A model generated the notes under the pieces. That model saw only the letters and a program-made list of their open reading frames with translations. It ran no database searches and was not told the DNA's origin. Positions 12,591-62,310 of a stretch of 64,000 nt of DNA are shown one piece after another. Origin of the DNA: Malacoraja senta. Its lineage: Eukaryota. Every line of letters starts with the position of its first letter. Positions within the stretch are counted from its first letter, which is position 1. The stretch is from contig CM075988.1 in assembly GCA_038087875.1 (NCBI GenBank), forward strand, positions 18,106,001-18,170,000, given 5' to 3'. A program made the position numbers and the translations under genes.

Positions 12591-15189
12591 GAGACCCGAA
12601 ACGTCACCTATCCATGTTCTCCAGTGATGCCACCTGTCCCGCTGACTTATCCCTGGTCTCTGGCGCTGTAAGGCTGCAAATGCACTGCTGTGCCTTGTGT
12701 TTGCAGAGCTCCTTTTATAAGCCCACGATACCTCAGATATGTCACAACCATGAGTACAACCAGCAGTTACTGGTATAATGTGGGGAACAGGACAGTCAGT
12801 TTGCAAACTGCCGTCTACAGTATGAAAATGACCAAATGATGAACTTGTGATATAGGTTAAGAGGTAACTGCTGTCCCCACACTGGGCTGAAGAAACATTC
12901 TCGCGTCACAGTGGTCAGGCTGCATTTGGAATATACTGTGTTCAGTTTAGGTCACCCTGCTACTTGAGGGATGCTGAAGATAGACACAAAATGCTGGAGT
13001 AACACAGCGGAACAGGCAGCATCTCTGGAGAGTTACTCCAGCATTTTGTGTCTATCTTCATGTAAATTAGCATCTGCAGTTCCTTTCTATACATACTGTA
13101 TGAAGGATCAAGGCAAGTGGGTCAAGAGTGCCATTTAGCTGGAAAAAGCCCAGAGAAGATTTACGAGGATGTTGCCAGGACTTGGGCTGCTCTATAGGGG
13201 GAGGTGTTGGGCAGGCTAGGATTTTATTTACAGAGGTGCATAAAATCATGAGGGGAATAGATAGGGTGAATGCAGTCTTTTTTACTCCACAGTAGGGGGA
13301 AATGAAGAACCAGAAGATGTGGCTTTAAGGTAAGTGGGGAAGATGTAATAGGAACCTGAGAAGCAACTTTTCCACACAGAAGGTGATGGGTGTATGGAAC
13401 GAGTGGACCGAGTTGGGGCAGGTAGAAGCTGGGTCGAAGGACCAGTTTCTGTGTTGTATGACTCTATGAATCACGATGGTGGTGCTGACCAGAGACCAGG
13501 GATGCAGGATTTCATTCTCCCGGCTGCTGCCTCCCTCTGCTGTACAGAGGAGTTGGCCAAACTTCCATTTCCTAGTGCCATTGACGCGGACCGGATTTTG
13601 GAACTTTGGAAATGGCGCCAAATCTGGCGACTCAAAACAATTTCACAGTGTTTTACACGTGACACCATTGAAGACGTGCAGCTTTTATTGGCTTCTGTAA
13701 ACCTTGAGTGTAGGATAGAACTAGTGTACATGTGATCGCTGGTGGGCGCGGACTCGGTGGGTCGAAGGGCCTGTTTCTGCGTCGTATCTCTAAACTAAAT
13801 TATAAGGTGAAACACTGGCTTCTGTCGTGAAGTGGGAGTCTGGGACTGGCAGGCATAGAGTCATACAGCCTGGGAACAGGCCCTTCGCCCCGACTTGTCC
13901 ATGCTGACCAATGATGCCCCATTCAAACCAGTCCAATTTACCCACATTTGGCCCAGATCCCTCCAAACCTTTCCTATCCATGTACCTGTCCAAACATCTG
14001 TTAAATGTTGAGGACTACCCAGCACAACTAAAGAATAGGTGACGTTTCGGGTCGAGACCCGACCTGAAACATCACCCATTCCTTCTTTCCAGAGCTGCTG
14101 CCTGTCCCGCTGACTTACTCCAGCATTTTGTGTCTATCTTTGGTAAACCAGCATCTGCAGTTCCTTCCTACACAAATAAACAACATCCTGACTCACCATC
14201 TGAAGAGGGAGAGGCAGAAGGCCTCATCGCGTCTACACGCTATTGGCATGTGGGTGCATGAAGAGCCATGTGCTGTGGTCACGGATCCAGTGCAGGCAGG
14301 TGGGATTGACTGAAGCAATGTTCAAGGGCCGAATGGCCTTCTGCAGTGATAGAATTTTTCTACCATGCCCAAATATCACATTATCTGCCTTTGTGTCAGC
14401 TTGTTTCCTTGCAAAGTACTTTGGGATGTTACAGGAGCTACAGAAATGAAATTTACACTGTGTTGTTCTGAATCAGGCCTGCTGTACCGAGAGCAGCCAG
14501 CTGGGGGTGCCACTGGCCTGGTCCAGCACCAGCTCGGCAGAGCCACCCACAGGTGATGCCCGGCATTTCAAAGAGTAGCAGCACAGGTTTGCAATACAGA
14601 AGGTGCACAGTCTGCTTTGGACTAGGGACATTATCCCAGCATGGAAAGCTCAGGAAATTCTGCACAACTAAATATAAATGATTTAGATGAAAACGCAGGT
14701 GGGCAGATTACTAGGTTTGCAGACAATATAAAATTTGGGGGAGCTGCGGAAAGAGAGAAAGGTTATCAAAGGTTACAGCAGGATATAGACCAGTTACAGA
14801 GTCATACAGAGTCTCTTTTCACTATCCGTTGTATGGATTGTATGCACTTATGTATGGGTTGTCACAGAATGAAAGGACATACCTTTAGAATGGAGATGAG
14901 GAGGAATTTCTCTAACCAGAGGGTGGTGAATCTGCAATTCATTGCCACAGATTGTGGTGGAGGTCAAATCAATGGGTATTTGTAAGGCAGAGATTGACAG
15001 ATTCTTGATTAATAACGCCATCAAAGATTATGGGGAGAAGGCAGAAGAACATAGATCAGCCATGATTGAATGGCAGAGTAGACCCGATGGGCTGAATGGC
15101 CTCATTCTGGCCCCATGATAGTACTTATTTTCTAATGTGATCTGACTGGATAGCAGGCAAATAAGGTTTTGTACTTATCTCGGTACATA

Positions 15190-17655: not shown

Positions 17656-17814
17656 CTTAAGACAAAGTGCTGGAGGAACTCAGCAGGTCAGGAGGGAATG
17701 GACAAGACAACTTCAGTTCAGTTTAGTTTATTGTCACGTGTACCGAGTCAGCGGAAAGACAATACATAATTACAATTGGGCCATTCACAGTTTACAGATA
17801 CATGATAAGGGAAT

Positions 17815-17997
17815 GTGTCAGAAAGAACTGCAGATGCTGATTTAAATTGAAGGTAGGCACAAAATGCTGGAGTAACTCAGTGGGACAGGCAGCATCTCTG
17901 GAGAGAAGGAATGGTCTCGACCCGAAACGTCACCCACTCCTTCTCTCCAGAGATGCTGCCTGTCCTGCTGAGTTACTCCAGAATTGTGGGTCTACCA
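17815..17997. repeat. Penelope-derived terminal repeat, inverted pair
   Basis: cacaaaatgctggagtaactcag...ggagagaagga followed by its reverse complement, with gacccgaaacgtcaccc at the centre. Confidence 0.8.
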
Positions 17998-18251
17998 TTA
18001 TAATGGAATAACATTTAGTGCTAGGTAAAGCCAGCAAAGTCCGAACAATGATAGTCTGAGGGTCACTAATGAGGTAGTTTTGAGTTGCGACGCCCCTTCA
18101 AACACTCCGTTGTGTTTCTGAGGCAACCTTTGACACGTTCAGATTGGATTTTAAATTCTCAATCTGTCTCTCAAGTGATTGTCCAAGATTGCGTGACACT
18201 GTCGTGACGCAGATGCGGGAAGGTCCTTCCGGTGATGGTTTGTGTCCCATT

Positions 18252-27262: not shown

Positions 27263-27385
27263 GCTCGATTGTAAATGGCTCGATTGTAATCATGTATTGT
27301 CTTTCCGCTGACTGGATAGCACACAACAAAAGCCTTTCACTGTACCTCGGTACACGTGACAATAAACTAAACCGAACTCAGTAGA

Positions 27386-27614
27386 TAGAAACGAAATGCT
27401 GGAGTAACTCAGCGGAACAGGCAGCATCTCTGGGGAGAAGGAATGGGTGACGTTTCAGGGTCGAGACCCTTCGTCAGTCTGAAGAAGGGTCTCGCTCCGA
27501 AACTCATTCATCACCCATTCCTTCTCTCCATAGATGCTACCTGTCCCGCTGAGTTACTCCAGCATTTTGTGTCTATCTTCGGTTTAAACCAGCATCTGCA
27601 GTTCCTTCCTACAC
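27386..27614. repeat. Penelope-derived inverted pair with an intact hammerhead core on the minus strand (27445-27477)
   Basis: The minus strand reads CTGACGA-agggtctcgaccct-GAAAC-GTC-accc. The plus-strand partner begins ctgaagaagggtctcg at 27478-27479. Confidence 0.75.
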
Positions 27615-28664
27615 ATGAGCTCCTTGGAGGCGGGCACTCTGTGGACACCATCCATTGATCTTTAAGTGTGGCGTCGGATGCAGTTGTTTGCGTGGAGAAG
27701 CACTGTGTTTGTTTCAGCAGTGGGGGGAGCTCCCTGCAAACAGACCCACCGCGTCAGGCAACGCACGCACTCCGGTGTTTACCATTTTCACAAAATACCA
27801 ACCCTTTTATGAAAAGTCATGTTCAAAGAAAAACAAATTGATGACATCACTTTAAGTGCCCGTGGATTAATTTAATGCAGAATAATCATTCGTCTCTTCT
27901 GACAACAGCTCCATTTGTCTGGGATTTCAACTAATGCAGAAATCCCAGAGCACAAGGCAGGTTCAATTGCACCAGCACTCCAGTCTCTCATCTCTACTTC
28001 ATAAGGTCATATGTTCTGGGGGCAGAATTAGGCCATTCGGCCCATCAAGTCTACTCTGCCATTCAATCATGACTGATCTATGCCTGATCTATCTTTTCCT
28101 CTCAAGTCCATTCTCCTGCCTTCGCCCCATAACCTCCGACACCCGTACTAATCAAGAATTTGTCAATCTCCACCTTAAAAATATCCATTGATGGCCTCCA
28201 TCTACACTTCCGGCTGCCTCAGGAAAGCAGCCAACATAATCATGCACAAAATTATGTGAGGAATAGATCGGGTAGACACATACAGAATCTCTTGCCACAG
28301 CGTAGAGGAATCGAGGACCAGAGGACATTGGTTTAGGTGAGGGGGGAACGATACACCAGAAACGTGAGGGGCAACTTTTTCACACAAAGGGTGGTGGGTG
28401 TATGGAATGAGCTGCCGGAGGAAGTGGTTGAGGCAGGGACTAACACAACATTTAAGAAACGTTTAGACTGGTACATGGATAGGACAGGTTTAGAGAGATA
28501 TGGGCCAAACGCATTGTAGATGGGACATGTTGGTTGGTGTCGGCAAGTTTGGCCGAAGGGCCTATTTCCACGCTGTATAACTCTATGACTCTAATCAAGG
28601 ACCACTCACCCGCTGGTCATTCCCTCTTCTCCCCGCTCCCGTCAGGCAGAACATACAAAGGTTC

Positions 28665-30320: not shown

Positions 30321-31734
30321 GCAAACTAGGATGCATCACCCAGGGTCACTCTGTGTCAGACTGAGCCCAGGTCTGATAGTGAGCTGAAGAAGGGTCTCGA
30401 CCCAAAACGTCACCAATTCCTTTTCACCAGAGATGCTGCCTGAGCCGCTGAGTTACTCCAGCGTAGTGTGTCTATCTGGTAGTGAGCCAGGAAGGCTTTC
30501 CAACTAAAAAACACCAGCAGTTGCTGAGACTAACATTTAAAAAAAAATTCTGATTTATTGAATTACCTGAATTTAAATTGCGCTGTGGGATTTGAACTCA
30601 GATCTCTGGATCAATGACGAAGACCAGTGGCTGCTGGCCCTGTGATTTAACCACTACACCGCTGAATATGGTGGATGCCTGGTGACCTATTCTCATTGAA
30701 CCCTGTCCATGTTCTCCAACAATACACTGCTATTTCTCCAACATCCTTCACAATGACTTGCATTTCCAGCGCTCCAATACACCGTCCTTGCAAGAAGATT
30801 AGTTTTGTCAAAAAAAGGTATTTGTTAATTAAATTTCATTCTGCCTTTTAAAACATCGGGAGTTTATGCAAATGCTACAACCCCACAGAAACCAAGTTCT
30901 CAGCCTATTGCTGTGTAATGTCACAATCATTTCCTCTGGGTTGATTTGACAAACCATTCTGAATTTTTTAAAAGAATTTAGTGACAAAGATCGGGATGAA
31001 AATCCAGAGCTTACTTTTAGCAAGAAATCTTAATTGAACATGACACTAAAACGCTGTCTCTGCATTAAAACAAATTAGCAAGTCCCATGCACTTAAAAAT
31101 GGGTTTGCATTAAATATTTCATTTGCTGCGCTGAGGCACAAGATGGCTGAACTGTAGCACTTAATTAATGGAAGGGTCAGTGCCTGAACATCCCCTCTCA
31201 CTCCTCCACCTTCCTTTAATTTACTGGAGGTGGGATACAGTTAATACTGAATCCCGAAACAAGGGAAACAATTAAAGATTGTCACATCTTTCCCGGGCTG
31301 GCCAGAGTTTGCTGTGCCATCAGAGGTTCTGAGTCAAGAGTTTTATTGTCATGTGTCCCAGTTAGAACAATGAAATTCTTACTTGCAGCAGCACAACAGA
31401 ATATGTAAACATAGTACACTGTAAACAAAATAATAAACAAGAAAAAAAATTCAATGTATATATCTATCTATATTTAAAACTCTGTGTGTGTGTGTGTTTC
31501 TGCCTGTGTGTGTTTCTGCCTGTCTTGTGGGTGCCAGCCTTCCTTTGATTCGTTGTTACGCCAACACCACACGCAGAAACGCCGAGATTGTTTCCATTTC
31601 GGTAGAGATTTCACTTTTCATTCCAAGTATCCACTCCTGATTAAATGTTGTCATGTTTATGTACACATTTTTAATAAAATCCTTCTCCACCCCCCCTCCC
31701 CCACACTCATTTTGTCTCCTCCTGCTGGCCAGCC

Positions 31735-38875: not shown

Positions 38876-41485
38876 AGGTGAGATGTTAAAGCAAGGGTCC
38901 ACCAAGCGATGAGACAAGGCTAGGTCGCACCTCCCATCCTTGATGGACCACATCTCCCGTGGTCCTCACCTCCGTGACCTCCGCAAAGTGCCACAACTGC
39001 TGCAGACCCACAGAGGCCAAGGTGTAATAGTGCCCTCACTCTGATGAGTGTGCACTTACAGTATTTCAACCGACATCTCTCCTCAGCGGGGATGTGCGTT
39101 TCCACGGTAACCTTGCTATTGGTTAACCCTTCACCCACACACGGCCTATATTTAGGCGAGAACAAGTTGTGCTGCAGATGGTGTTAACGTGCGTGTGAAG
39201 GTTTCCTTTGTAGTCGGTGAGATGTTTGGAGCCGCAGTATGTGGCACTCCGTCGGTACAGCCAGGTGCCGCACAGCAGGCTGCAGAGGGAGACCTACATT
39301 ATTAATGATTAACCGCGCAAAGATAATTCAAGGAGTCGGCTTACAATAAACACGACTGCTACATTGAAGGCTGCGTTTCTATGCAACATCAATGCTGGAA
39401 TGTTACAGCCCGTGACATCGTGCTGGCGAGGATTGATCTCCTAAATCCTCATCTATAACATCATGAGAGCAATAGATAGGGTTGATTGATTGATTTATTG
39501 ATTCATAGATTCATTATTATCACATGATCATGAGCGGAATAGATCGGGTGGATGCACAGTCTCTTGCCCAGAGTAGGGGAATCGAGGACCAGAGGACACA
39601 GCTTTAAGGTGGAGGGGGGAATTAATTTATAGGAATCTGACGGGTGACTTTTCCACGCCAAGGTATGGACGAGGTGACCGGAGGAAGTAGTTGAGGCTGG
39701 GACTATGGTAAGGTTTAATAAGCAATTAGACAGGTACATGGATAGGACAGGTTTAGAGGGATACGGGCCAAATGCAGGCAGGTAGGAATAGCGTAGAAGG
39801 AACATATTGGTCGATGTGAGCAAGTGGGGTCGAGGGGCCTGTTTCCACGCTGTATCACTCTATGACTATGTACTCAGTACAGTGAAATTCTTAGTTTTGT
39901 ATTCAATACATACGCAAGTATGCAAAGAGTCGCCTTATATTGGGAGCTGACAAAGTTACAAGTAAATGCACAGAATAAAGAACCAGGAGGACATAGGTTT
40001 ATGGTGGGTAGGGGGGGAGGGATGATGATTTGGAGCCGAAGGGCCAGTTTCTACGCTGTTTCTCTCAACTAAACTAAACTAAACTAAACTGGGTAGATGA
40101 CATTTGGGGCAGGGACCATTTTTTCAGACTCCTGCCATCCAGCTTTGGTAAGTGGCTGCTGTGCACGCAGCAACAGAGTATTTGGGGTTTCACACATTGA
40201 AAGAGGTAAATGAGTGATGGAGCCACGACTGGTTTAGCAGATTTAGACATTGCCTCCAACGTAAGGGGAACTGAACTATGCTTAATTGTACAATGATATT
40301 AACGGTGCACTGGGACTGGTGTGGAGGGATCTTCGTTCTCTCTGCTCTGCTGATCTCTGGATGAGACACTGGGCTGCAGCCTTGTCTGACCTTGCAGCAG
40401 AAGGGCAACGACCTTGCAGCAGAAGGGCAACGAAATGGCAAAGAGTTAGCAGCTGAGGATAAAGGCCCTCGCACGTGGTGATGTCCACGCATCTGCTCCC
40501 TGTTTCCCACCACAGTGGCCGCACTTCAAGTCTATTGGCTGCAACTGTCGTGTGTTATCCCAGAATCATGAACAAAGCCAGGCAGCTGTTGAGTTTTTTT
40601 TTGTTTTAACAATCAAGGAAAGAAGTTATTAAACGCTGTCACCATTTCATACCTTCATAAGTGATAGGAACAGAATTAGGCCATTCGGCCCATCAAGTTA
40701 ATCATGGCTGATCTATCTTTCCCTCTCAACCCCATAACCTCTGACACACGCACTACTCAAGAATCTATCAATCGCCACCTTCAAAATATCCATTGACTTG
40801 GTCTCCACAGCCTTCTGGAGCAATGAATTCCACCCTCTGACTAAAGAAATTCCCCTTCCTCTCCTTCCCAAAGATATGTCTTTATAATCTGAGGCTGTGG
40901 TCTCTGGTGCTCTATTTCCCATTTATTGGCCCTTAAATTTCTAACGAGATTTAAAACACACTCATTTCTGGCATACATTGCAAGGCTCCCTATTCTGCCT
41001 GGCATTGGTAGCATTACAGAATCTGGGATAAATACAAGGACCGACCATTTATTAACTAATAGTATTTTTGAATGTGGTTTACATTTGAAAGTGTTGTATG
41101 TTACACACTGAGGGATCTGTGCTGGCCTTTGAGAAGCAGAACCCACTGACTGTCAGTGCACTGACCAAAAAAAAAAATAGACAGATGGGTGAATAAAGTA
41201 GAAGACAGAGATTTTAACACCTCCACTAATTTTTCTCACACAACAACCCATAAATAGAGAGGAGCATTCGCAACGGGCCCTGAAGGAGTTACGTAAAAGA
41301 TCGTCCATTTGTGACGGAGATAAGGAAGAATGTCATTAGCCAGAGAGTCACGAATCCTTGGAAATCAAGCCCCAGAGAATTGGCGTCGAGTCGTGCAGCA
41401 TGGAAACAGGCCCTTCGGCCCAACCCGTCCATGCCGGCCATCAGCTACCTATCCAATCCCAGCAGGTGGTCCATAGGCTTCAATG

Positions 41486-41698
41486 TGTGTTGGAAAGAAC
41501 TGCAGATGCCGGTTTAAATTGAAGGTAGACACAAAATGTTGGAGTAACTCAGCGGGACAGGCAGCATCTCTGGAGAGAAGGAATGGGTGACGCTTCGGGT
41601 CGAGACCCTTCTTCAGTCTTGACCCGAAACGTCACCCATTCCTTCTCTCCAGAGATGCTGCCTGTCCCGCTGAGTTGCTCCAGCATTTTGTGTCTACC
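41486..41698. repeat. Penelope-derived inverted pair (near-perfect ~80-bp arms)
   Basis: ggtagacacaaaatg...gggtgacgcttcgggtc and gacccgaaacgtcaccc...cattttgtgtctacc. Confidence 0.85.
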
Positions 41699-43182
41699 AT
41701 AGCCTTCAATCCCTGGCTGATTCAAGGATCGTTTAGATGCCACTGAAATGTTCTGAGAGTTTCTGCCTCTCCCTTTCCTCAGGCACTGCGTTCAAGTTTG
41801 CAGCCAACCTCTGGGTAAAATTGTTCACATCTTCTCACAGCCTCTCCCCGCTGGTTTTGGACACCGCTGCAATGGGGAAAATGTTCCTCCTATCTACCCT
41901 ATCCGAACCCATACCCCTCATAATTTTATCACACCTCAATCAGCTCCCCCTGGTTCAAGAAAATCACTTCCAGCCTCTCCAGTCTCCCCACATAACCCAA
42001 ATGCCCCATCTCAGGTAATATCCAGGTGAATCTCCTTTGCACCATCTCCAGTGTAGTCATGTCTCTCCTATGGTGTGTACAGTACTCCATCTGTGCCATG
42101 CCATTGTTTTAGGAAGCTGTCCCATAAATTCATAAGTTTATGTTTATTAGTCATTGGAGCAGAATTAGGCCACTCGGCCCATCGGGTCTCCTCGGACATT
42201 TAATCATGGCCTGATCAATCTTTCCCTCTCAACCCCATTCTCTTGCCTTCTTGCCATAACCCCTGACACCCTTACTAATCAAGAATCTGTTCATCTCCAC
42301 CTTTAAAATATGCATTGGCTTGGCCTCCACAGCTTTATTATTCTGTTGCTGCTAGATGTGACAATGAAACACCCTTGCCGTGACTCTTGACTTTAGACTT
42401 AAGAGATACAGCACGGAAACAGGCCCTTCGGCCCACCGAGACTGCTACGACCAGCGATCACCCCGTACACTAGCACCACCCTACGCACCAGGGACAATTT
42501 ACAATTGTACCAAAGCCAGTTTACTGCCGCCCTGATTTGCAGTATGGATTTTGGCTTCGCAGAATTGTGGTCTGGTTAGCCGATAATACTGTTTATTAAT
42601 TGTTTGTATTATTAATTATGCTCCGTTTATTTGCGTGTTCTTGCATCAATGGGCCTGCATAGCTGCAAGTAGGAATTCTGTTGTTCTGTTGCTGGTAGAG
42701 GTGACAATCAAACACCCTTGACTTGACTCTTGAGACCTTTTTCAGGACCCTGACGTAAGCCTCTGTCCCATCCGTGAGCATCTATCCTCTGTCAGCACAA
42801 AGACACCTGGTCTTCTTACTTCATTACCTCTTCCAGTGAGCCGGCCTCCTCTCATTAGTTCACTCTGTTTTCAAATTATAGAGAGTGACCTTCTACATAT
42901 GATGGCAAATTTGAAACAGGCTCTTTATATTTATTTCCTGGGACTTTTTAATTAAAAATTGATTTTTGTGGGAGCATAGTTAATGAAATCCTCTTTCCTG
43001 CAAGTTTAGTGAACCAACAGCACCAGATATTTGTGAAAAATAGAGACCTTTAATAGGCCATAACTTTGCCGTAGAGTATCCAATTCAGGTGATTCATATT
43101 TTGAAACGACACATAGAAGGAACAAATATATAAAAAGTATATTTTATTGATCAACAAAACTATTGTTTTGTTACTTAATCAT

Positions 43183-43470: not shown

Positions 43471-43565
43471 GTTGCATCAAGTTCTGAATGCTATTTGTCC
43501 TTTTTTCCTCGGGCAGCTGATTGCCATGAAGGGTGTCATACTGTGTGCAGCAGCAGCAGGCAAAA

Positions 43566-43777
43566 TGTGTAGGAAGGAAAAGCAGATGCTGGTTTATACT
43601 GGAGACAGCACACAAAGTGCTGGGGTAACCCAGCGTGGTCAGGCAGCATCTCTGGAGAAAAAGGACGGGTGACGTTTCGTGTCTGAAGAAGGGTTCCGAC
43701 CCGAAACGTCACCTGTCCTTTTTCTCCAGAGATGCTGCCTAGCCTGTTGAGTTGCTCCAGCACTTTGTGTCTATCTG
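43566..43777. repeat. Penelope-derived inverted pair with an intact hammerhead core on the plus strand (43683-43710)
   Basis: gt-CTGAAGA-agggttccgaccc-GAAAC-GTC-ac. Confidence 0.78.
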
Positions 43778-43931
43778 TCAGCAGCAGACCCAGGCTGTGG
43801 GACGGGTCCGCGGCGGACGAAGACTATGGATGGGAAGTCGATCTCCATCACAGCCACGCAGAGTCTCGGCGTTCCCAGGCTAAAGCAACGACACCGCTTC
43901 AGAACCTGCATGCACTTAGAAAGATGCGAAA

Positions 43932-49968: not shown

Positions 49969-52015
49969 TTGTGGACTGGGTTCCTGTTCACACCCACTGT
50001 AACATCAAATGGTCTTCCTTGATTCAATGTGTGTGATACCTCACTGTCCCTGTAATGTTTGGCCAATAAATTGCTTCCCTTTTGAAACAAAAAAACCTTC
50101 AAACAGTTAATGTATTTTTCAGCTGACGGGGCTACTTTTAAAACATTCACCTTACCTTTCTGTCAGATGTGAAATAACCTGCACAGCCTTTCCAGAGTTT
50201 GAAGACAGACACAAAATTCTGGAGTAACTCAGCGGGGCAGGCCGCATCTCTGGAGAAAAAGAATTTTGATTCGAGACTTTCCCCCTCCCTATCTCTCGGT
50301 CCGACGAAGGGTATCGCTGAGTCTCCAGCATTTTGTGTCTGGCTTCAGTGTAAACCAGCATCTGTAGTTCCTTCCTACACATTTCCTGAGCTTGGTTGAG
50401 TTTCATATCTCCTTTACAACTGAGCTTGTGGCTTCACTGTGTGACACAGAGTTTCACCCTTTCACAGATATCAGTGAGTACGATGCATGGTGATGACTGC
50501 TTTCATCACGTGAGTTAAGCCCACACTCTGCACCTTTGGCACCCTTTGCTAACCAGGAGAAAAGGAGCCAAGTGCAAAGCTATTCTGGACTAATTATACA
50601 TTTCATTTGCAAATAATTGGATGGCACAATCACTTCCTCACCTTTCCTACAGCTGTCCTCTTTGATAAACCAAATTCTCCTTATGTTTTTTCTGAGAACA
50701 TAAATTAGCAGAGACACCAGCAAACTGCAGGTGCTGGAAACGTGAGCAAAAAACAAAGTGCTGGAGGAACTCAGCGGGTGGGGCAGCATCTGTGGATGAA
50801 GTGGACTGACCATGATATGGGTCGGGACAACTTCTTCACACTGATCAGTTGTCTGTCCATTCCCTCCGCAGATGCTGCCTGACCTGCCGAGTTCTTCCAG
50901 CACTTTGTATTTCTGCATTTATTAATTGCTGTTTTTCACACAAGCTAATGCTAAGCTGTATTTCTCCATTCTAGCCACGGTGGAAGCGCCTGTGAGAGGG
51001 GACTACAGCCGCAGATTTTAATTATCTATAGATAGAAGATAGACACAAAATGCTGGGGAGAGGAAAACTAGCGGTATGAATGACACGATACGATATGATA
51101 TGATAGAACTTTATTGATCCCAGGAGGGAAATTGGTCTGGCAATATAAACACAAGATACATGAAACATGAAATTAAAGTGTCGAGTGGAAAGTCCAGGAT
51201 TGGGGATGTGTGAAGATTGGGGAGGGGGGTGACGGGGGGGAGGGGGTTATGGGGAAGGGGAGTCAGTCTACCCCCGACAGGAGGGGGAGGAGTTGTACAG
51301 TTAGATAGCCTCGGGGAAAAAGGATCTCCTGTGGCGTTCTATGCTACACAGAATAGGTACAAAGAACAAAATGGGAACAACAATAGATAACGAAATAATC
51401 TCTGTTTACTTCCCCTAACTTAATTGTCATATTTATTGGTTTTCACACACTTGGCTCTTTATGTTCCTCATCATATGCTCTCATTAAGTGGAACGGGACT
51501 TGCATTCTCTGTAAATGTTTTTGCCATGCAATCCACAATGTTATTTGCCTTGAATGTCTATCCTTTGCACAGACATTTAACATCTCAATCAGAGCGGCAG
51601 CAGCTGTCTATTTACTTGTGAAATAATATATGAGGTTGAAATGTAATTTTTTGGGTCTCATGAATACTGATCAAACAGCTAAGACCACCATCTATTTCTA
51701 GAGGTGTTCTTTCAACACTCGATGTATTAACAACATCTGTGGTTTTCCTTTGAATGGATTTAGTGGAAAGCATTTTTAATATCTTGCCATTTGAAAACAT
51801 CGGGTACGTTTTCATAATGTCTGTTCCAGCGTCCCTTGAAATATCAACATCTGTTGTCGGGGACACAAGCTCAGTAATTGCTATTTGTGATATTAATGGC
51901 TCATCAGTTAATTAATTAATTTATAAGGTTGTTTCTAGGGAATGAGGGTCTTGCTTTCTGGCTGAGAAAGCGTGAGACTGGTCTGCATTGACCGGAGTTG
52001 GGATGAATAGGGATC

Positions 52016-59920: not shown

Positions 59921-60749
59921 AACCCTATCCCTGTATTTTTCACTAACTGTGGCCAGGTAATAATCCCATTGTTCTCTGTGTCCTTCCAATCCCCTCATCA
60001 ACCTGATGAAAGGTCCCGGCCTGAAAGGTCGTCAGGCACTACTCCCTCCACAGACGTTGCCTGACCTGCTGAGTTACTCCAGCACTCCGTGTCTTTTGTT
60101 CCCTTCCTCAGAAATGACTTGGATTTGGACGTGAGGTGATGCGGTGACCAGCTCTTCCATGCGGGACAACCGAATGTGAAAATGTTACGAAACACCTCTC
60201 TGCGATAATCTAGCTGAAACCTAAAACACAGAATATGGAATTAGAGGCTGAGGAGGTCCTTATAGTTGTGTACAAGAGGGGAATAGAGAAGTATATTTTC
60301 TTTGTGTTGGATACTTGTCTTTCACTTTGATCGTCACCCAGACTTATGTTGACACATTTTCACCTGTAATCGATACTTGCTTTTTGACAACTTCCCTCTG
60401 TGTTCTGCAGCAGATATTGAATCTGTAGTTGGTATAATACATGACATCAGTGAGGTGCCACACTCTCTTCTGCCCAGCTCCACTGTGTGTCTCATTTATC
60501 ACCTCCACATTTGTGGCCCAGTCCCCTATTTGTCATGATAACTTTCAATGAGGATCTGAGTTAGCGGCGGCCTTATATCCCGAGGGTCTTGCATGCCAGC
60601 CCCTTGGTCTGTCCCCTCTCACTCCCATTAGCAGCCTACGTTCTTCCTCAGTGGTCAGGTTTACGGACTGACCACGGACTAAATATCCGGGGTTCAATTT
60701 AAGAACTCCCACTTGAGAAATCTGTTTGATCTGAATTTTGAATCCCATT

Positions 60750-61072
60750 CTGTCTGTCCTGGGCCTCCTCCATGGCCAGAGTGAGGACCACCATAAATTG
60801 GAGGAGCAGCACCTCATATTTCGCTTGGGCAGTTTGCACCCCAGCGGTATGAACATAGACTTCTCTAATTTCAGGTAGACCCTACTTTCTCCTCCCCTTC
60901 TCAACTCTCCCTCAGCCCATTGGCTCCACCTCTTCCTTTCTTCATCCCGCACCCCCCCCCCCACCCTCACATCAGTCTGAAGAAGGGTTTTGACCTGAAA
61001 CGTTGCCTATTTCCTTCGCTCCATAGATGCTGCCTCACCTGCTGAGTTTCTCCAGCATTTTTGTCTACCTTC
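60750..61072 (+). mobile_element. Penelope-like element 3' end: ORF C-terminus (GIY-YIG end) plus terminal repeat with hammerhead motif
   Basis: 60750-60878 translates LSVLGLLHGQSEDHHKLEEQHLIFRLGSLHPSGMNIDFSNFR*, the R..LE...I..L.TL.P.GLN pattern of Penelope GIY-YIG ends. Then comes cagt-CTGAAGA-agggttttgacct-GAAAC-GTT and the gatgctgcc...gctgagtt tail. Confidence 0.85.
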
Positions 61073-61099: not shown

Positions 61100-62310
61100 C
61101 CCTGAGATTGATTAAGGTAGGGTCTCTGTTCTAATTAACTCCACATAGAGAGTCCTAGAGAGCTCCTGTCCCCCAGACCTGGAAGTGAAGTGTCATCTCT
61201 ACTACCTGCTGCACTCTTCGTCCACTCCTGACAGCGGTCCATATCCCACTCCAGGCCAATGCTAAGCTTGTACTTGAGGAACTACACAGTGCTACCGGTA
61301 GCCTTGAACCGAGACATTGTCCATAATGGTCAATGGGGATTTCAATCAGGCCAACCTCAAGAGTGAGTTGGCAAACTACTATCAGTACATCTCCTGCTCA
61401 AACACCCTTGACAACTGCTACACAACCATCAAAGACACCAACCGCTCCATCCCCCCACCGCACCTTGGTAAATCAGACTATGGCCATGCTTCCGCTCTCT
61501 GCTCACAAACAGAAACTGAAGCAGGAGGATCCGGGACAGAAAGTCGTACAGCGCTGGTCTGAGGAAATGGGTGAATCTTCTGCGAGTGTGTTGAGATGAA
61601 TATGTCACACACTTCATCAGCATGTGTGTAGAGGACAGTGTGCCGATTACCGATGAAGAGAATGTGTATCTTCCCCAGATACACCTTGAGGTCCACTCGC
61701 AGTGAAGTCCATGTCTGCAGCATTCAAGTCAAACAATCCCGAGTGGTGCAAGAAATCTATCTGTAACCTTCGCAGCGCCATGAAGGAGGCCAAGAAGGAA
61801 TTCTGGACTAAATTGGCGTCTGGAGGCAATTAAGGCGAGCAGTATCACTGGTAACGATGGATCCATCCCTGATGAACCCCACGCCCCCATTGCCTTGCCG
61901 TTCCAAAGCAGGTGTATCTTCGAACGGCCGCTGTAGATACTTTGGTGAACCGGTTTTCCATCAACGGTTTCAAGCTTCAAATCCGAAGAAATGTCAAGAA
62001 ATTTTCTCGACTATTCTGGCCTCAGACGTGTCGGAGTGAGCTCAGGTCCCAGGTGTGAAATGGCCCTGGGATTCAGACACGGTGCAAGCCCTACCACAAC
62101 TAGGGAGCAGTGCCTCTTTGATGACCTCTTTGATGACCCTCAGACTATCCTTGATCGGACTTTGCACTAAACGCATCATGTCCTCAAGTGATCTGTAACT
62201 TACATTTACAGTGTAAATGTAATCATGCATTGTCTTTCTGCTGACTGGATAACACGCAACAAAAGCTTTTCACTGTACCTCGGTACACATGACAATAAAC
62301 CAAACTGACT
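61100..62310 (+). mobile_element. Decayed, internally deleted Rex1/Babar-like LINE (endonuclease region to 3' tail)
   Basis: GDFNQANLK...TLDNCYTTIKD...PHLGKSD are APE endonuclease motifs. Tail ttcactgtacctcggtacacatgacaataaac. Confidence 0.75.

Follow-up and report, generated by a model that had tools for sequence, protein, structure and literature searches.

A 5′-truncated Neptune-type Penelope-like element copy with a minimal hammerhead motif in Malacoraja senta

In a 64,000-nt stretch of the Malacoraja senta genome (contig CM075988.1 of assembly GCA_038087875.1, positions 18,106,001 to 18,170,000; hereafter the window), the end of an open reading frame (ORF) is joined through a pyrimidine-rich spacer to a hammerhead ribozyme motif and to a tail that recurs across the window. 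Is this join a true unit of a retrotransposon, is the hammerhead genuine, and is this copy the parent of the repeat around it? We find that segment 60740–61072 is very probably the 5′-truncated pLTR 3′ end of a Neptune-type Penelope-like element (PLE) with a minimal type I hammerhead motif, likely inert in place, a confidence that covers the origin proposed below as well. It is one decayed copy of an already described arrangement, real but ordinary.

The copy and the element it derives from

The features are collected in Table 1. A frame of 42 codons (60750–60875) ends in ...SGMNIDFSNFR and is closed by a TAG stop at 60876–60878. This ORF end shares 93–98% identity with the end of longer copies. 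The genome search covered 1.94 Gb and gave 3,394 candidate matches to the segment, of which the 40 that were scored are 92–95% identical to it. ORF end, spacer, hammerhead and tail are joined in the same way in 30 of 30 fetched copies. At these loci the common sequence extends 5 to about 1,400 nt further 5′, where the window copy stops short, so the latter is simply more 5′-truncated. Its 5′ junction is blurred (about 60740–60752), the optional tail extension of ~34 nt is missing, and no target-site duplication is found (the flanks have no word of 6 or more nt in common). The initial annotation had placed ORF end, spacer, core and tail here, and all of them are located there by sequence. Its parse of the hammerhead holds for the core, but one A (60984) had been omitted and stem II was mis-parsed.

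Table 1. Features of the 60740–61072 copy and related palindromes in the window
Feature	Position	Strand	Evidence
Neptune-type Penelope-like element copy, subfamily A, 5′-truncated, most of one pLTR	60740..61072	+	Similarity to genomic relatives
Terminal 42 codons plus stop of the RT-GIY-YIG ORF, at the endonuclease C-terminus; cannot be expressed here	60750..60878	+	Longer copies
Pyrimidine-rich spacer, 101 nt; GT at stop codon, CAG against helix I; candidate retained intron/promoter region	60875..60975	+	
Minimal type I hammerhead	60975..61006	+	Sequence and independent covariance model, 19.7 bits, E 0.0036
pLTR body 3′ of hammerhead, up to proximal of two preferred 3′ ends	61005..61072	+	
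Pairs of pLTR stubs (subfamily B or older) in head-to-head palindromes, with the centre close to the hammerhead start	12973-13107, 17811-18004, 27372-27626, 41476-41705, 43556-43782, 50164-50394, 50720-50915		

In the longer copies of the family a reverse transcriptase (RT) is followed by a Cys linker and a GIY-YIG endonuclease (EN) in a single ORF, the hallmark of EN+ PLEs. The linker has the form C-X4-C-X2-C, and a Y-IGE endonuclease motif is readable. Pfam matches of longer copies to GIY-YIG lie just under the cut-off (E 3.5e-4 and 1.1e-3), two RT pieces give one weak RVT_1 match below the cut-off, and the 47-residue frame of the window gives no Pfam match. Protein matches of the longer copies are RT plus GIY-YIG proteins of sharks, rays and invertebrates, the best named relatives being those of sharks and rays. 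A relative of 902 residues matches both RVT_1 (8.5e-11) and GIY-YIG (1.2e-7) in Pfam, and tblastn aligns its residues 157–889 to a long family copy (E 2e-119 and 2e-33). By these matches the peptide, initially called Penelope, is identified as the GIY-YIG C-terminus of a Penelope-like element. A zinc-finger-like linker, CX2-5CxxC, between RT and EN is described as a mark of Neptune or Nematis (PMC8557442). The Cys linker, which does not separate Neptune from Nematis, together with the protein matches suggests assignment of the family as Neptune-type.

The segment formed by ORF end, spacer, hammerhead and tail directly precedes 12 of 30 ORF-start loci, several of the 12 being duplicates on two contigs. 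The segment is thus a pLTR, in the partial-tandem arrangement that is a further hallmark of EN+ PLEs. In these tandems the tail runs into the next unit, with the ATG 163 nt after C3. The optional 30–40-nt tail and the inverted 5′-truncated copies typical of EN+ PLEs are found as well, as bimodal 3′ ends and as head-to-head pairs (68 of 221 copies). A coding frame through the tail into the ORF, open in subfamily A, was considered and rejected, as in subfamily B this stretch is broken by frame-shifting indels and a stop.

Several neighbouring or related sequences were observed along the way. Long subfamily-A copies (L104/L077 and L105/L070) have a variable array of ~27-nt tandem repeats between the N-terminus and RT, in the N-terminal third of the ORF, reminiscent of the low-complexity inserts in rotifer Penelope ORFs. 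A skate neuromedin-U receptor 1 model (P0020) ends in the same endonuclease C-terminus, either by PLE exonisation or as an annotation artefact. The read-through frame of a zebra shark protein (P0003) ends in residues that this hammerhead, with U at N7, could encode, a hint that sharks may keep the motif at the same place. Beside Penelope fragments, a 340-residue open frame (L063:4303–5322, minus-strand numbering) is presumably a Tc1/mariner-like transposase by its motifs. A degraded frame at about 61300–61800 (+) of the window, just 3′ of the Penelope fragment, gives no Pfam match; we take it to resemble the apurinic-endonuclease region of a LINE.

The hammerhead motif and its likely activity

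The spacer reaches 60975, where helix I begins with 2 bp (60975–76 with 61005–06). C3 to A9 (CTGAAGA, 60977–60983) are followed by an unpaired extra A at 60984, between A9 and G10.1, and by helix II (60985–88/60993–96, GGGT/ACCT) with the 4-nt loop TTTG. After G12 to A15.1 (GAAA, 60997–61000) comes C-G-T-T (61001–61004), with the ACGU palindrome at 61000–61003, and the tail runs to 61072. Cleavage is predicted after U17, between 61004 and 61005, where U16.1 precedes U17 (GUU). The minimal PLE core (C3-U4-G5-A6-N7-G8-A9, G12-A13-A14, A15.1-U16.1, H17) is complete in this copy and in every subfamily majority. The extra unpaired base 9/10.1, typical of PLE minimal hammerheads (PMC4209133), and their palindromic 15.2–16.2 are both present at 60975–61006. 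The closing pair of helix II is G10.1-U11.1 in this copy and G10.1-C11.1 in the family (C in 93 of 132), whose loop is TTCG; the G-U pair and the TTTG loop are CpG decay from the family G-C and TTCG. Helix I has 2 bp throughout the fish family (U-G or U-A, G-C) and 3–5 covarying bp in invertebrate relatives.

A genome-wide count of the exact core pattern gives 34,872 occurrences, compared with 0 for the reversed control. Among 25 Rfam matches at E ≤ 10 in the whole window no hammerhead family is present, which we read as a limit of these models because our own covariance model finds the motif. A metagenome scan with a single protein query gave no relatives. An alignment-based scan gave 80 loci at 29–50% protein identity, and 49 of them have the ORF end plus 150 or more nt beyond. 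The motif is found on the sense strand in 24 of these 49 distant invertebrate-type loci and on the antisense strand in none. It lies 99–158 nt after the stop in the 23 relatives with a located stop, and 101 nt after it in the window copy. Eighteen of the 24 were used further, leaving out four duplicates or near-duplicates, one that is cut off and one with a longer stem. In these motifs 98% of cells pair, helix II being part of the selection. Helix I is independent of the selection; it is 96% paired, and each of its 3 pairs shows two-sided changes, in about six lineages whose counts are not independent. The covariance model built from the 18 alone ranks the window copy third in the window (Table 1), and its ten best matches are all family copies. 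As far as sequence comparison goes, the hammerhead motif is genuine, and the PLE minimal hammerhead with ACGU palindrome proposed in the initial annotation is borne out by the core features, the relatives, the covarying stems and the independent model.

Conservation was measured on the 134 sampled copies, of 221 scored, that include the core; the other copies begin within the core or later. Non-CpG core positions are 86–96% constant. CpG positions decay (G12, 71%), a loss that is neutral and follows insertion. The core is preferentially conserved when compared with loop 2 and with the linker beyond the cleavage site; two tail blocks (+42..+57 and +64..+83), however, are as constant as the core. 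Core and helix II are common to the subfamily majorities, which diverge in loop 2, at H17 (C or U) and at position 1.1 (A or G).

The probability that helix II pairs is 0.03 in the window copy as monomer and 0.05 in an intact A copy, against 0.92–0.99 in two invertebrate motifs; even an intact fish motif faces a competing fold. The monomer fold of the window copy is no better than those of shuffles (z +1.1 and +1.0). The nearest same-strand motif, 974 nt upstream (60003), is degenerate and has no ACGU, and all hammerhead features occur together in only 10 of the 134 sampled copies. Minimal PLE hammerheads are described as having no activity in monomers and little in dimers (PMC4209133), and the Anolis PLE hammerhead is described as requiring protein (PMC11167929). 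Because of its G10.1-U11.1 pair, its 2-bp helix I and its lack of a partner, the hammerhead of the window copy is predicted by folding to be a likely non-cleaving one.

In these fishes the motif could go one step further and be a relic that has lost cleavage altogether and persists in another role, as promoter, protein-binding site or RT-recognition sequence. The 2-bp helix I and the competing hairpins would fit a relic, and so would copy ends that are unrelated to the cleavage site (see below) and the report that cleavage is unnecessary for insertion in vitro (PMC11167929). However, the differences between subfamilies spare the core and obey the rules of a hammerhead: H17 is a C or a U, with G in 1 of 128, position 1.1 has A or G facing U2.1, and 11.4 has A or G facing U. 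We consider a relic unlikely, if well worth keeping in mind, and the conservation of the fish motif across subfamilies might reflect another function.

Stub ends, proposed origin and the spacer as candidate intron

The tail profile has 30 matches in the window, in line with the recurrence noticed at first, and 242 in an evenly spaced 600-kb sample, which extrapolates to roughly 0.7 million genome-wide. From this sample 221 copies were studied, whose 5′ ends were placed by local alignment and are good to a few bases only. Relative to C3, 72 of the 221 start at −5..0, five start at +25..+30, around the cut site, and only 20 reach beyond −90. Since the stub 5′ ends lie at the core and not at the cleavage site, cleavage does not set them. 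The 3′ ends fall in two preferred groups of 104 and 81 copies; in subfamily A, the range +91..+97 from C3 holds the ends of 14 of 30 copies, and +123..+134 those of 12.

For the flank analysis, 97 stubs starting at −10..+2 were taken. An adjacent target-site duplication of 9–15 bp is found in 10 of them (9 distinct), compared with 0 of 242 in the control. An inverted partner is present in 28, and 56 have neither partner, duplication nor pyrimidine-rich upstream sequence. Unrecognised spacers were rejected as the cause of the 5′ pile-up, as the upstream sequence is pyrimidine-rich in only 3 of the 97. Among all 221 copies a head-to-head partner is seen far more often than a tail-to-tail partner (68 versus 12), and 14 of 27 copies in the window are head-to-head. 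The palindrome junctions, in a set chosen for likeness to one palindrome, have 1–3 nt of microhomology, compatible with snap-back priming. The stub 5′ ends are most likely due to an RNA whose own 5′ end lies immediately upstream of the core. The TCAGTC context at this place resembles what we take to be the initiator consensus. An Inr-like site in a pLTR has been described (PMC3846280).

We propose two roles for the pLTR RNA of an active tandem element: it would form the 5′ UTR of the following unit and provide the start site for RT. Its hammerhead would cleave after GUH, but only in dimeric form or if assisted by the element protein. Core-start stubs would be cDNAs that have run to the end of an RNA whose 5′ terminus lies immediately before CUGA, likely owing to internal transcription initiation, and the head-to-head palindromes would come from snap-back of such a cDNA. 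The 60740–61072 copy likely arose by reverse transcription from the proximal internal start site in the tail, with a halt about 330 nt later, and the window-wide repeat consists of core-start stubs, mostly from sister subfamily B. In the Anolis element the optional tail is tied to two internal RT starts (PMC11167929). Furthermore, hundreds of insertions with 5′ ends before the core agree in vivo with the in vitro dispensability of cleavage for PLE insertion.

Two minor observations concern individual stubs. A solo stub at about 30384–30490 (+) starts at the core and has an apparent 13-bp target-site duplication with one mismatch. In two others (L095 and L097) G replaces C3 right after the target-site duplication; this could be an untemplated, cap-copied G, although two cases are too few.

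An added layer, compatible with the proposed origin, would be that the spacer is a retained spliceosomal intron whose acceptor AG contributes the 5′ side of helix I, an arrangement seen in Drosophila virilis Penelope. Among the ORF-linked copies GT is found at the stop codon in 44 of 53 and AG at helix I in 50 of 53, although the spacers fall in ten groups that differ in sequence and in length (95–255 nt). The sequence before the AG is 71–93% pyrimidine. An intron end at helix I has a described precedent (PMC4209133; also PMC2377424 and PMC8557442), and the D. virilis intron is spliced yet retained in copies (PMC2377424). However, the GT is explicable as the last codon base plus the stop, and the G of the AG is fixed by helix I pairing. 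GT is mostly missing in 3 of the 10 groups and also in two further copies, 38 of the 53 copies represent one subfamily, and in invertebrate relatives the spacer is not conserved and both ends are missing. The genome search for spliced copies gave one pattern match, which is a deleted subfamily-B spacer, and no spliced DNA copy. Contigs of four runs that are not on record as RNA cover the element, and the exact splice junction is not among 15 of 40 joints, a result that weighs neither way. The papers searched make no mention of introns in the pLTRs of vertebrate Neptune elements. On balance we find the intron doubtful. Rather doubtful, too, is the wider claim that in shark and ray Neptune elements its splicing remodels the ORF end and the 5′ arm of the ribozyme, while an RNA end at the acceptor/start region, not cleavage, defines several hundred thousand SINE-like stubs of 100–130 nt starting with CUGA. 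If the spacer were a true intron, vertebrate Neptune elements would share with Drosophila Penelope the layout in which an intron ends at helix I, and a simple system would be at hand for asking why PLEs keep introns.

Parentage of the window-wide repeat and comparison with known systems

The other tails in the window are only about 78–88% identical to that of the 60740–61072 copy. Among the 27 window copies scored, subfamily B is the nearer one for 24 and A for one (the 60740–61072 copy itself), while two tie. The 600-kb sample shows the same bias, with 190 copies closer to B versus 30 to A, and older subfamilies fall with B. Subfamily B has its own ORF-linked copies, with a spacer of 185–196 nt. 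Judged by this similarity, the window-wide repeat is a set of pLTR-derived stubs, mostly of sister subfamily B. The initial annotation had taken it for the terminal repeat of this family, which is right for the pLTR origin but not for subfamily A as parent.

Direct parentage by subfamily A, with a dimeric hammerhead that cuts out the spreading RNA units, is very unlikely. The repeat is homologous to the tail of the 60740–61072 copy and has the core in common with it, and subfamily A does yield solo and palindromic stubs elsewhere, with 18,843 A-type motifs in the genome pattern counts. Against this, the window copies lie nearer to subfamily B with its own ORF-linked parent, and the same counts give 40,832 B/C-type motifs. 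Excision by cleavage is further opposed by the stubs themselves, which retain the complete core on the 5′ side of the cut and rarely start around it. These comparisons largely refute the A parentage. To be noted, most of the A-type motifs listed have G at 11.4 (U-G wobble), and the window copy has A; since G is commoner among the motifs listed, the window copy falls outside the larger A sub-branch.

Finally, an independent retrozyme or SINE that lies behind a Penelope fragment by chance is hardly credible: most copies are short and have no ORF sequence, but the fixed join, which continues into the next ORF, refutes it, and tandem array and canonical hammerhead are both absent here.

The segment is a member of the EN+ Penelope-like elements with minimal pLTR hammerhead and not a retrozyme array. 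With the metazoan PLE minimal hammerheads, including those of fish Xena, Poseidon and Neptune (Cervera and De la Pena 2014, PMC4209133), it shares, as they are described, the CUGANGA/GAAA/UH core, the extra base before G10.1, the G10.1-C11.1 pair (here in the family), the palindromic 15.2–16.2 and the pLTR location. Mostly dispersed single copies from truncated elements are described there, as found here. In contrast to them, helix I has only 2 bp and helix II 4 bp, and the window copy has G10.1-U11.1. The 34,872 exact cores compare with about 4,000 in coelacanth and 9,000 in Xenopus (PMC4209133), counts from differing search methods. Two supplementary files of that paper contain no cartilaginous fish terms; its file 1 and the supplements of the retrozyme preprint (bioRxiv 10.64898/2026.07.22.740005) may list such motifs.

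The Poseidon element PAc of Anolis carolinensis (Frangieh et al. 2024, PMC11167929) is described with the same tandem pLTR layout and a minimal hammerhead, with two preferred 3′ ends 30–40 nt apart and with no sign of ends at the cleavage site, as here. It differs from the present family, which has the Cys linker of Neptune/Nematis type and its first ATG 163 nt after C3, whereas the PAc ORF starts at helix II. The insertion units described for EN+ PLEs (PMC3846280, PMC8557442) have head-to-head palindromes, an optional 30–40-nt tail, heavy 5′ truncation and target-site duplications of about 9–15 bp, all as found here; the units here are only 100–250 nt long, however, and very numerous, at about 0.4 per kb in the 600 kb sampled. 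The pLTR of D. virilis Penelope (PMC2377424; PMC4209133) also has a 2-bp helix I, and its intron ends at helix I as the GT...AG spacer does here, but splicing and start site are reported as proven there and only suggested here, and the clade differs. Non-LTR retrozymes (PMC7229834; bioRxiv 10.64898/2026.07.22.740005) likewise have a type I hammerhead in a small PLE-related repeat, and retrozymes are reported in one cartilaginous fish in the latter source. Theirs are tandem repeats, each with a hammerhead, in arrays with mostly canonical motifs and circular RNA, whereas a single ORF-linked pLTR fragment is present here. In addition, an older diverged stub is found in the window at 59997–60096 (+), with CTGATGA, a varied helix II and no ACGU, which scores 13.3 bits on the invertebrate-only model.
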